DNA from: Chthoniobacteraceae bacterium
Lineage (GTDB): Bacteria > Verrucomicrobiota > Verrucomicrobiia > Chthoniobacterales > Chthoniobacteraceae
Assembly (NCBI GenBank): GCA_031409335.1
Contig: JANNWY010000040.1
Span: 1 to 11,954 of the forward strand
Direction: 5' to 3'
DNA length: 11,954 nucleotides
Each line of letters starts with the position of its first letter. The first letter of the stretch is position 1. The position numbers and the translations under genes are program-made. The notes under the pieces are model-generated. The model made no database searches and was not told where the DNA came from. It was given only the letters and a program-made list of their open reading frames with translations. Shown here piece after piece: positions 8,516 through 11,954 of the stretch.

Positions 8516-8923
8516 TTACTCGAAGGGATTCACCACCGGCACGCCGCAGCGCGTGAAGTCGTCCACATTGCGCGTGGCCACCGTGAGTCCGTGCAGCTTC
8601 GCGGTGGCGGCGATCATGGTGTCGGCCATGCCTACGGTGAAACCGGCGCGCTTCACTTTGTTAAAAAGTTTGCCCCACACGATTCCCGTTTCCTCCGTCC
8701 AATCCAAACAGATGGTCGTGCTCCGCAGCTCTTGAAACCACGATTCAAGATCCCGCTTTTTGAGCCCCGACGGCATCGCATCGATCCCGCGCCAGATTTC
8801 CGCCAGCACCACGGCATCGACCACGCTCTGAGCCTCGTTCCTGGCAATCCAGGCGAGCACGCGGGGCGACGGCTGCAGCTTGGTTGGCTCGCTCAGCACG
8901 TTCACGTCCACGAGGTAGTTCAT
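8516..8923 (-). CDS. vapC: Type II toxin-antitoxin PIN-domain toxin (VapC/FitB-like ribonuclease)
   Basis: 135 aa; YLVDVNVLSE, LAEIWRGI, DTMIAATAKLHGLTVATRNVDDF, VVNPFE are PIN-domain signature motifs with the acidic active-site residues. Confidence 0.92.
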   Translation of the reverse strand: MNYLVDVNVLSEPTKLQPSPRVLAWIARNEAQSVVDAVVLAEIWRGIDAMPSGLKKRDLESWFQELRSTTICLDWTEETGIVWGKLFNKVKRAGFTVGMADTMIAATAKLHGLTVATRNVDDFTRCGVPVVNPFE

Positions 8924-9174
8924 TCAAAGGGATTCCGCCAAAAGTCCGCAGTGGTTTCCCGGCGCTCCAACGGCTTATACCAGCCCTTCACCGGACAGCT
9001 CAGCAGCACATCAATGAGCCGGCGCTTGGGCTTTGCTTCATCCACGACCTTGACCCGCAGAGTGTCGCCGCCGAGGGAGTCGATCTCACAGCGTTGCCCT
9101 GGCTTGATGCGATGCTTCCGGCGGAGCTTCGCGGGAATTTCCACGGAGCCATCGGCTGAAACTTTAGTCGTCAT
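8920..9174 (-). CDS. AbrB/MazE/SpoVT-family DNA-binding antitoxin (VapB-like)
   Basis: 84 aa; MTTKVSADGSVEIPAKLRRKHRIKPGQ fits the AbrB swapped-hairpin pattern; ATGA overlap with the PIN gene. Confidence 0.85.
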   Translation of the reverse strand: MTTKVSADGSVEIPAKLRRKHRIKPGQRCEIDSLGGDTLRVKVVDEAKPKRRLIDVLLSCPVKGWYKPLERRETTADFWRNPFE

Positions 9175-10684: not shown

Positions 10685-10850
10685 ACGCCCATGATAACGG
10701 GCTTCACAGCTTCACACTTGTCTTACCTGCCAGACATCCCTCGCCTCATACGGGCTCAAGCTACTACCAACTGACTAGCGCGAAGCAGCTCGCGGAATCT
10801 ACCAGCGCCCGTTGGCTGCTTGACGACCGTAGCCATCACCAAGTTTTTCA

Positions 10851-10875
10851 AACTTAGTGGTTGACGACCTAAGTT
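10851..10875. promoter_or_regulatory. Inverted repeat AACTTAG-N11-CTAAGTT straddling the -35 box; candidate operator
   Basis: Perfect 7-bp arms at 10851-10857 and 10869-10875. Confidence 0.4.
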
Positions 10876-10889
10876 CAGAGGCTTACTTT
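10861..10889 (+). promoter_or_regulatory. Sigma70-type promoter for the leader/ncRNA/tRNA operon
   Basis: TTGACG (10861-10866), 17 nt, TACTTT (10884-10889); predicted start near 10896, just before the ATG at 10908. Confidence 0.7.
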
Positions 10890-10907
10890 GTTATTCCTTC
10901 ACTTCCA

Positions 10908-11075
10908 ATGACATCAACCGGAACATATCCAAACCATTCGCAAGCGACCTCGTGGTTGCGTTGCGCGGGTATGTCCGTGCGCATTGGCAAACCCGGATTC
11001 GGGTTCGGCGTCCAGGCAACCAATACGCGGCCGAGTTCCGCGAACGAAGGCCTTACCAAGGAGGCCAGCAGGTAG
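10908..11075 (+). CDS. Putative attenuator leader peptide, 55 aa (MTSTGTYPNHSQATSWLRCAGMSVRIGKPGFGFGVQATNTRPSSANEGLTKEASR)
   Basis: First ATG after the predicted promoter; its TAG (11073-11075) lies inside the segment complementary to the 5' arm of the downstream terminator. Confidence 0.55.
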   Translation: MTSTGTYPNHSQATSWLRCAGMSVRIGKPGFGFGVQATNTRPSSANEGLTKEASR

Positions 11076-11122
11076 TTCAAGATCTGACACAGATCATCGA
11101 AATTTCGAGAACCCTGCCGGCC
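11049..11122 (+). promoter_or_regulatory. Attenuator alternative helices (anti-antiterminator and antiterminator)
   Basis: GGCCTT 11049-11054 pairs with GAGGCC 11061-11066. Alternatively GGCCAGCAGG-TA-GTTC 11063-11078 pairs with GAACCCTGCCGGCC 11109-11122 (13 bp, one A.C mismatch, 2-nt bulge). Confidence 0.7.
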
Positions 11123-11147
11123 TGAAAGCCAGCAGGGTTCTTCGTTT
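11107..11147 (+). terminator. Intrinsic terminator-like hairpin (conditional)
   Basis: AGAACCCTGC-C-GGC / CTGAAA loop / GCC-A-GCAGGGTTCT, ending in an interrupted U-rich tail (TTCTTCGTTT). Confidence 0.75.
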
Positions 11148-11159
11148 CCGGGTGATGAA

Positions 11160-11675
11160 CCAGTTTTCTAGTCGCGGCCCGATGGCCGCAAAACCAAAGC
11201 AACCAAACTGATCGACCAACACATTTGAACCACAACGTGGGCGATAAAAACCCCGCCGTCAGCGCAAACTGACGATGGGGCGGAACGCACGGCGCGGCAG
11301 CGCACTCCTACTAACGCGGAGCGCTTACCGCATAGCCGCCGGCGCGGCAATCGGTCACCAATCCAGATAAGTCCCTAGCGGAGACGCCGGTGAGTTAGTA
11401 ACCTCGCAAACGGTGGCAGCTCACGGAGTAACTGTCAAGCCAGTCAATCTTACGATGACTAGCTAGCGGATCTGTATTGTCTGATTCCTCGCCCTGACTT
11501 CTCCAGTCCAGAGGCTTCGCATGACTAACTATGTCATGCACCGGGAGGTGTGCCTGAAACACCGAAAGAACCGCCGTGAAATAATCCTGCGGGTGCGAAC
11601 TCAAGTTCCGAGTTGGCAGCGGTGTTTGTTCTTTTTTGTCGTATGCGGCGCGGGTGTCACAACCCGCGCCGCCCA
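11160..11675 (+). ncRNA. Candidate large multi-domain structured RNA(s) upstream of the tRNA array (family unassigned; context like GOLLD/ROOL)
   Basis: More than a dozen helices by eye, including nested long-range stems 11209-11215/11351-11357, 11360-11378/11463-11486, 11390-11396/11418-11424 and 11570-11574/11619-11623; GAGA and GCAA loops, AGUA motifs, G.U pairs on the + strand; no convincing protein ORF. Boundaries approximate. Confidence 0.6.
11645..11675 (+). other. Perfect 11-bp GC-rich hairpin followed by CCA
   Basis: GCGGCGCGGGT-GTCACA-ACCCGCGCCGC-CCA, 3 nt before the first tRNA. Confidence 0.8.
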
Positions 11676-11678
11676 TTT

Positions 11679-11752
11679 GCGGTCATCGTCCAAGAGCAGG
11701 ATGCCTGAACGCCAATCAGGCGATGCCGGTGCAATTCCGGCTGACCGCACCA
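11679..11752 (+). tRNA. tRNA-Gly(GCC), non-canonical
   Basis: Acceptor GCGGTCA/TGACCGC, D stem GTCC/GGAT, anticodon stem CCTGA/TCAGG with loop AC-GCC-AA (anticodon 11711-11713), T stem GCCGG/CCGGC with loop TGCAATT, A73, encoded CCA. Confidence 0.88.
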
Positions 11753-11770
11753 TTTTCAAGTACCCACAAC

Positions 11771-11844
11771 ACGGCGGGCGCCAGCTTGCGCAGCTTGGTC
11801 TCCAGAACCTTGCGGGCTCGGGGCAGCACCGAGACGCCGTGCCA
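11771..11844 (+). tRNA. tRNA-Trp(CCA), degenerate/non-canonical
   Basis: Acceptor ACGGCG/CGCCGT (A1-U72, G73, G7.A66 mismatch), D arm GCGC-CAGCTT-GCGC, anticodon arm TTGGT-CT-CCA-GA-ACCTT (anticodon 11802-11804, two U.U pairs), T arm CTCGG-GGCAGCA-CCGAG, encoded CCA. Confidence 0.75.
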
Positions 11845-11855
11845 TTTCTTCAAAT

Positions 11856-11931
11856 CGCGGGGGAGCCAGGTGGGAAGGCAGCGGCCTCATAAGCCGTCAA
11901 TGAGCGGGTTCGATTCCCGCCCCCGCCACCA
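11856..11931 (+). tRNA. tRNA-Met(CAT), initiator-like
   Basis: Acceptor CGCGGGG/CCCCGCC with C1.C72 mismatch, D arm GCC-AGGTGGGAA-GGC, anticodon arm GCGGC-CT-CAT-AA-GCCGT (anticodon 11888-11890), T arm GCGGG-TTCGATT-CCCGC, A73, encoded CCA. Confidence 0.9.
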
Positions 11932-11938
11932 ATTTCAT

Positions 11939-11954
11939 GGGCCGCTCGATCATT
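11939..11954 (+). tRNA. Probable 5' end of a fourth tRNA, truncated by the window edge
   Basis: After a 7-nt AT-rich spacer (ATTTCAT), GGGCCGC-TC-GATC-ATT fits acceptor strand, positions 8-9 and D stem. Identity cannot be determined. Confidence 0.45.

Follow-up and report, generated by a model that had tools for sequence, protein, structure and literature searches.

A likely translation-gated regulatory head of a long tRNA array and RNA-repair operon in Verrucomicrobiota

The tRNA array and its neighbouring genes

The window, that is, the whole stretch of 11,954 nucleotides analysed here, is an entire contig (C40) of the genome of a Chthoniobacteraceae bacterium (G000) and stops at position 11954, 23 nt 3' of a tRNA-Met gene. 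The genes 5' of the cassette described below encode cytochromes and an ordinary PSCyt/DUF1501 module together with a PIN/MazE-like pair; the PIN-domain and MazE-like genes (8516-9174, minus strand) are inserted between the PSCyt and the DUF1501 genes. Flanking genes vary between relatives, which fits the expectation for a mobile cassette.

The last part of the window carries tRNA genes on the plus strand. A tRNA-Gly(GCC) gene (11679-11752), called by ARAGORN and Rfam, has C33, a TGC in the T-loop and discriminator A, and a canonical tRNA-Gly(GCC) copy is found on contig C293 of the same genome. A tRNA-Met(CAT) gene (11856-11931, +), likewise called by both programs, shows an initiator-like C1 mismatch without the three anticodon-stem G-C pairs. 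By the rules of tRNA identity the Gly tRNA is atypical and the Met tRNA initiator-like, and with its discriminator A and C33 the array tRNA-Gly may differ from the housekeeping copy in identity or charging. Between these two lies a degenerate tRNA-Trp(CCA)-like gene (11771-11844, +) whose homologues are called as tRNA-Trp(CCA); the unit itself received no call from ARAGORN or Rfam and folds no better than shuffled sequences (z +1.0). The final 16 nt (11939-11954, +) are identical to the start of the tRNA-Ala(CGC) gene in relatives. An earlier note, made from the letters of this stretch alone, had described three CCA-ending units spaced 18 and 11 nt apart and a probable fourth tRNA; units and spacing are correct, the middle one being recognized only via its homologues, and the fourth is accounted for by the tRNA-Ala(CGC) start.

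Housekeeping Gly(GCC), Trp and Met tRNAs are present elsewhere in the genome and the array isoacceptors are thus supernumerary. Full-length arrays of relatives comprise 14-20 tRNAs on the same strand (default ARAGORN, six loci), compared to three and a partial one in the window. A relaxed ARAGORN run on the genome produced noise.

In relatives, the arrays are followed by varying sets of genes for Band_7 (SPFH), TROVE (Ro60), RlaP, RtcB and HNH proteins. The rtcB, TROVE and HNH neighbours predicted in the earlier note are therefore present, and its reading of the locus as an RNA-only cassette had to be given up. In the window's genome, RlaP, rtcB and HNH genes are encoded at the end of contig C12 which, judging from the gene order in relatives, would follow C40. 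Joining of C40 to another contig via an end overlap was ruled out, as only chance matches of 12-14 nt were obtained, and the remaining array is unassembled. Read on the reverse strand, the first 5.4 kb of C12 contain RlaP, two opposite-strand methyltransferase/restriction-like genes, a site complementary to the core RNA (see below), rtcB and HNH; the start of this contig resembles the end of an insertion sequence. A truncated second rtcB, located by a PIN-like gene on contig C324 (10689-11103), is accompanied by a second such site and by a copy of the 65-nt element introduced below, and a similar remnant was seen in locus L086. A protein of about 270 amino acids without a Pfam match recurs within the operons (L022, 10289-11119; L120; L142; L152; L165), sometimes directly 3' of the core RNA. 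The gene for RtcR (C263, 6265-6810) is unlinked, being neither on C40 nor on C12, so the genome may also hold a conventional RNA-repair operon; RtcR was not found in three of five cassette genomes, one of which is only 67% complete.

The probable leader attenuator

Upstream of the array, on the plus strand, a sigma70-type promoter (TTGACG, 17 nt, TACTTT; 10861-10889, with the -35 element at 10861-10866 and the -10 element at 10884-10889) is conserved in relatives; its score of 8/12 is below the cut-off of the consensus scan, and for this reason it was unlisted there. It precedes a 55-codon upstream open reading frame (uORF) with an ATG start (10908-11075, +), which has no Shine-Dalgarno (SD)-like run upstream and the 5' half of which forms a hairpin. 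Its end overlaps the antiterminator strand (11060-11072, +), which in the model is covered by a ribosome positioned at the uORF stop, and an intrinsic terminator lies at 11106-11147 (+). Promoter, uORF and competing helices with a terminator can be seen directly in the sequence, as had been pointed out previously. The leader folds with a z of -5.0, and pairing of the antiterminator with the 5' arm of the terminator amounts to -20.1 kcal/mol in the window versus -25.2 kcal/mol for the terminator hairpin.

From 153 loci, 69 leaders remained for scoring once recombinase loci (12), loci with too little DNA upstream (41), duplicates (14) and loci failing the terminator/promoter pattern (17) had been excluded, scoring being conditional on a TTG-led -35 element and an ATG 8-34 nt beyond the -10 element. 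In 65 of these 69 the frame of the ATG stops 23-39 nt 5' of the terminator, compared to 0 and 3 for the other two frames; in the four misses, an upstream false start had been chosen. The last codons of the uORF pair with the terminator arm and follow its changes, that is, they covary. Similarly, cognate antiterminator pairing (-14.5 kcal/mol) is stronger than non-cognate pairing (-12.4 kcal/mol), and the median non-cognate value is surpassed in 39 of 50 cases. The frame test and this covariation bear out the proposal that a ribosome-dependent attenuator precedes an accessory tRNA array.

The leader peptides (43-83 amino acids) are divergent and not conserved in sequence. However, all 20 amino acids occur in 27 of 37 leaders sharing less than 50% identity, versus 1.72 expected from base composition; kin are not independent in these counts, but the gap between observed and expected is large nevertheless. 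The mean number of distinct amino acids is 19.7 in the leader frame, against 17.2 and 18.0 for the two alternative frames, and Trp and Cys are each encoded in 35 of the 37 divergent leaders. Codon runs for a single amino acid, as in leaders of the trp or his type, were not found, no residue exceeding 10.2% of the pooled leaders. The uORF of the window encodes 19 of the 20 amino acids, Asp being absent, which taken alone is not significant (P 0.15). The completeness of 27 of the 37 leaders points to a general translation sensor and, because it samples all amino acids, the leader probably monitors the state of translation as a whole and not the supply of a single amino acid.

We consider the attenuator step very likely. 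From the arrangement of these elements we infer that the promoter fires and that a ribosome translates the leader; on arrival at the stop it would cover the antiterminator, allowing the terminator to form and keeping the operon off. An earlier stall, caused by a ribosome drug or by an uncharged, missing or cut tRNA, would let the antiterminator pair, and polymerase would then enter the spare tRNAs and the RNA-repair genes. Metatranscriptome contigs from relatives (4 of 24 listed runs) span leader, spacer and tRNAs, one of them crossing the terminator and another linking the core RNA with tRNA-Gly; strand and level are not given for these contigs, which may also derive from DNA.

A predicted antisense RNA, a core RNA and a long-range helix

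Between terminator and array, the earlier note had seen about 500 nt of dense structure belonging to one large structured RNA, with all elements on the plus strand. The spacer does fold well (z -3.6), but 65 nt of it are a mobile insertion, and the other two statements were not confirmed. A single large sense-strand RNA was rejected, since the consensus fold retained only one hairpin and the minus strand offered the better explanation. The spacer is a composite of a predicted small RNA (sRNA) gene on the minus strand, the 65-nt insert and a separate RNA of about 130 nt. A conserved toxin or other open reading frame in the spacer was not seen by eye.

The predicted antisense sRNA (11246-11403, minus strand) consists of a 5' imperfect hairpin, a single-stranded linker, a 14-bp terminator hairpin and a U tract, and would be about 155 nt long in the window and about 90-100 nt in relatives. 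It is preceded by a candidate promoter (TTGACA, 17 nt, CACCGT; 11410-11438, minus strand), a conserved TGTCAA on the sense strand being the minus-strand TTGACA. Of 43 array leaders, 39 have the TTGAC site, which is missing from all 9 recombinase loci; of these 39 antisense promoters, 34 have the exact TTGACA, 31 an A at -11 and 26 a T at -7. For 38 of 39 loci the minus strand gives the better fold of this region (consensus -31.8 kcal/mol), and 11 of 19 consensus pairs are changed on both sides. A model of the sRNA gave one strong match per array leader and one weak match elsewhere in five genomes, and no match in recombinase loci.

Neither the sRNA nor the core RNA matched an Rfam 15 covariance model, even E values up to 10 returning only chance matches, and the models for C4 antisense RNA, GOLLD, ROOL and MISL gave no match. 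Y RNAs (YrlA) are sought on the strand of Ro60 and at most 4 kb away from it, whereas the sRNA is antisense, and it had no Rfam match to them. On the sense strand, a competing helix over the target of the sRNA linker was noticed by eye and is the basis for the idea that the sRNA might pair with a sense site that is otherwise self-folded, thereby damping leak transcripts; to such damping we would give an even chance.

The 65-nt palindromic insertion (MITE/REP-like; 11286-11350, without assigned strand) lies in the sRNA linker and is missing at the same site in several relatives; a metatranscriptome contig skips it with a joint at 11283-11349. Copies were noted in L021, L022, L024, L031, L074 and L085 and on contigs C56 and C324 of the window's genome. 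The element inserts between AA dinucleotides in T-, D- and variable loops of tRNAs, in both orientations, and no transposase was identified for it.

The conserved core RNA (11512-11641, +) contains the helices P3 and P4, an invariant GGGAGGUG and a U-rich tail. P3 and P4 covary, and 96% of cells pair, a value reached by 0 of 500 shuffles. A probable H-type pseudoknot would join 11512-11515 with 11552-11555 and 11547-11551 with 11559-11563 (+). The outer pair of its first stem is GC in 19, AU in 18 and GU in 6 of 43 sequences and is never broken; the second stem is invariant because the search pattern fixed it, and the pseudoknot is thus only probable. A second pseudoknot, between an upstream strand and loop L1, applied to a subset only, with cognate pairing better in merely 29 of 56 cases, and is kept as a lead. 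Among the matches listed, the core RNA occurs without attenuator (absent from 9/9) or sRNA ahead of serine recombinases in 9 of 80 titled loci. Copies standing alone 5' of large serine recombinase and ParB-like genes were observed in Verrucomicrobiota elements, namely in L103, L114, L126, L127, L136, L138, L145, L153 and L162.

The core tail (11616-11641, +) is complementary to a site located about 40-95 nt upstream of rtcB/HNH, on C12 and C324 in the window's genome. Of 36 loci in which rtcB/HNH is in view, 29 have this long-range helix and 7 lack it; it beats every control window in 27 of the 36, with a median of 23 bp. The distance from tail to site is 0.5-9.7 kb in the 36 scored loci and about 19 kb in one more. 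Within loci, a change on one side is mirrored on the other, as in the pairs TTCGTTC/GAACGAA and GTTTTCA/TGAAAAC, and the changes follow clades. Recombinase-associated copies have no complement to the tail in view. The simplest reading is that of a processing stalk, in which the tail would close a helix of the leader-trailer type around the tRNA block and also fix the 5' region of the rtcB/HNH mRNA; we give this reading slightly less than an even chance.

The same RNA might instead act as a processive-antitermination element across kilobases of untranslated tRNA genes, reused before recombinase operons, with nut/boxA and EAR or put elements as analogues. Its solitary position ahead of serine recombinases would suit such a role, as would tails ending in GTTCTTT or GATCTTT, which match boxA-like sites in rRNA leaders of the phylum; by the available text of PMC13753749, Bacillus boxA likewise ends so. 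The match to the boxA of the host's rRNA extends over 7 nt in most clades and fails in one, and the GA that follows TTT in rRNA sites is absent from most tails. In addition, the clade test failed, since two genomes with GTTTTCA or GTTTTTA tails have rRNA leaders reading GCTCTTTGAC or GTTCTTTGAC, and model R1 found nothing in six rRNA loci or ahead of five proteobacterial recombinases (0/5). We regard antitermination as rather unlikely.

Another reading regards the core RNA as a second switch or as a ribosome-recruiting element, in which the helix brings a ribosome bound to GGGAGGUG to an SD-less rtcB/HNH start. ACACC has two possible partners, the pseudoknot strand and the tail, which exclude each other; its columns were fixed by the search pattern and hence carry no covariation evidence, and the pairing with the tail only breaks and never covaries. 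As to recruitment, binding of GGGAGGUG to the 16S 3' end is possible, with a duplex of core and anti-SD of -14.2 kcal/mol, and an SD is present at 0 of 29 helix-bearing rtcB/HNH starts versus 4 of 7 starts without the helix, a correlation that is confounded with clade. SD-less starts may, however, be the norm in this phylum, and we regard this reading as unlikely.

Less likely still, the core RNA could be excised together with the tRNAs as an antisense RNA repressing rtcB/HNH until stress, following what is known of C4 RNA. It is a multi-hairpin RNA located 5' of tRNAs and of recombinases, and its complement in the downstream 5' region is near-perfect with matched changes. Against this stand the lack of a C4 match at E values up to 10, also in an insertion-free homologue, the position of the paired site far 5' of the start codon, and recombinase copies without such a target in view.

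A more elaborate design may be put forward tentatively, which we hold to be less probable than not: a protein-free RNA control of translation repair in three layers, made up of an all-20 leader sensing the loss of any tRNA, the antisense RNA and an active pseudoknotted RNA of a new class (acting through antitermination, ligand sensing or ribosome delivery to the SD-less rtcB) that was borrowed by recombinase elements.

Distribution and comparison with known systems

Leader or spacer matched over at least 90 nt in 13 of 60 related genomes, whereas a tally of 53 of 61 in the same comparison reflects mostly short tRNA-Met matches. An exact 23-nt spacer pattern occurs at 119 or more genome loci. 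Among the matches listed, 78 of 80 titled loci belong to Verrucomicrobiota, and of these 80, 66 have tRNAs downstream, 9 carry a serine recombinase in their place, 4 are truncated and 1 is ambiguous; the conserved linkage of parts by which the earlier note proposed to check its idea is therefore present in many relatives. Model R1 gave one weak, chance-compatible match among the best 26 candidates from each of 150 other genomes of the phylum. Phage and plasmid collections yielded nothing beyond tRNA matches and one match to the 65-nt insert, and four contigs from viral collections were counted with the patchy spread of the array. L246 and L247, which are the same as or like L149 and L173, contain two core-RNA copies with no tRNAs, attenuator or recombinase in view.

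A cryptic, decaying mobile tRNA array with a disused leader would also be patchy, and the core motif indeed occurs in only 23 of the 401 genomes sampled from the class (1 with a reversed-pattern control); degenerate tRNAs, mobile inserts within tRNAs and the truncated second rtcB on C324 would fit decay as well. Yet the reading frame, the completeness in amino acids and the compensatory changes seen across several orders require ongoing selection on the family, and we regard this explanation as very improbable; such selection does not prove activity of the window copy itself. With several degenerate tRNAs and an insertion in its sRNA, the window copy may itself be decaying. For the family we favour selection, and it is quite likely that the locus is a translation-gated control region heading an operon which combines a long tRNA array with RNA repair and has spread horizontally.

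The locus offers a testable answer to the questions why cryptic tRNA arrays persist and how their activation works in bacteria other than cyanobacteria, together with a candidate natural sensor built to report on all amino acids. A further contribution is a pair of structured RNAs that are restricted to the phylum, supported by covariation and assigned to no Rfam family; both occur at locus L112 of Chthoniobacter flavus, a soil species available in culture.

With L-arrays, described in the main text of PMC8421152 as long, redundant and patchy tRNA arrays with neighbouring or co-regulated HNH and rtcB genes and listed there for Verrucomicrobia, the locus shares the run of tRNAs on one strand, the patchiness and the nearby HNH and rtcB genes. 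According to the same text, the array of Anabaena PCC 7120 is induced together with rtcB and an HNH gene under translational stress; 'attenuat' and 'leader' have no occurrence in it. The Anabaena trn operon is controlled by direct repeats at the promoter and the repressor TrcR (PMC10272220, as far as its available text goes), whereas control here apparently operates at the RNA level. A direct-repeat motif over the -10 element, as in the TrcR site, requires GTA, and none was seen by eye at 10850-10910 of the window.

The uORF of whiB7/wblC combines a Rho-independent terminator with an antiterminator and is opened by stalling; in M. smegmatis it encodes all amino acids but Cys, is rich in Ala, and its composition determines which starvation induces (available parts of bioRxiv 10.1101/2023.06.02.543512). 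In contrast to that Ala-rich leader, which controls a transcription factor, the present leader heads tRNA and RNA-repair genes, and its completeness is selected across divergent sequences. PA5471.1 of Pseudomonas aeruginosa is a leader that attenuates armZ (RtcB-like)-PA5470 and is induced by ribosome drugs; as predicted for our locus, it provides leader-peptide attenuation before an RtcB-like gene, but a tRNA array, an antisense RNA and a pseudoknotted RNA are not described for it in the available text of PMC12057347. The rsr-yrlBA-rtcBA operon of Salmonella, which responds to damaged tRNA under control of RtcR (available text of PMC7790460 and PMC4201824), shares RtcB and Ro60 with noncoding RNAs, whereas here RtcR is off-locus and the sRNA, encoded on the other strand, is not recognized by Rfam as a Y RNA. 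In the leader-trailer helix and boxA of rRNA operons, complementary strands bracket stable-RNA genes and a boxA-like 7-mer occurs (PMC10250234 and PMC13753749, available text). By comparison, our helix encloses tRNAs together with some protein genes, stops just ahead of rtcB/HNH and matches boxA in part.

The combination of leader, antisense RNA, core RNA and array was not found described in the literature searched, mostly main texts of open papers. Known parts, an L-array with RNA repair and a uORF attenuator, are joined here in a selected module together with an all-amino-acid sensor and two uncatalogued RNAs.
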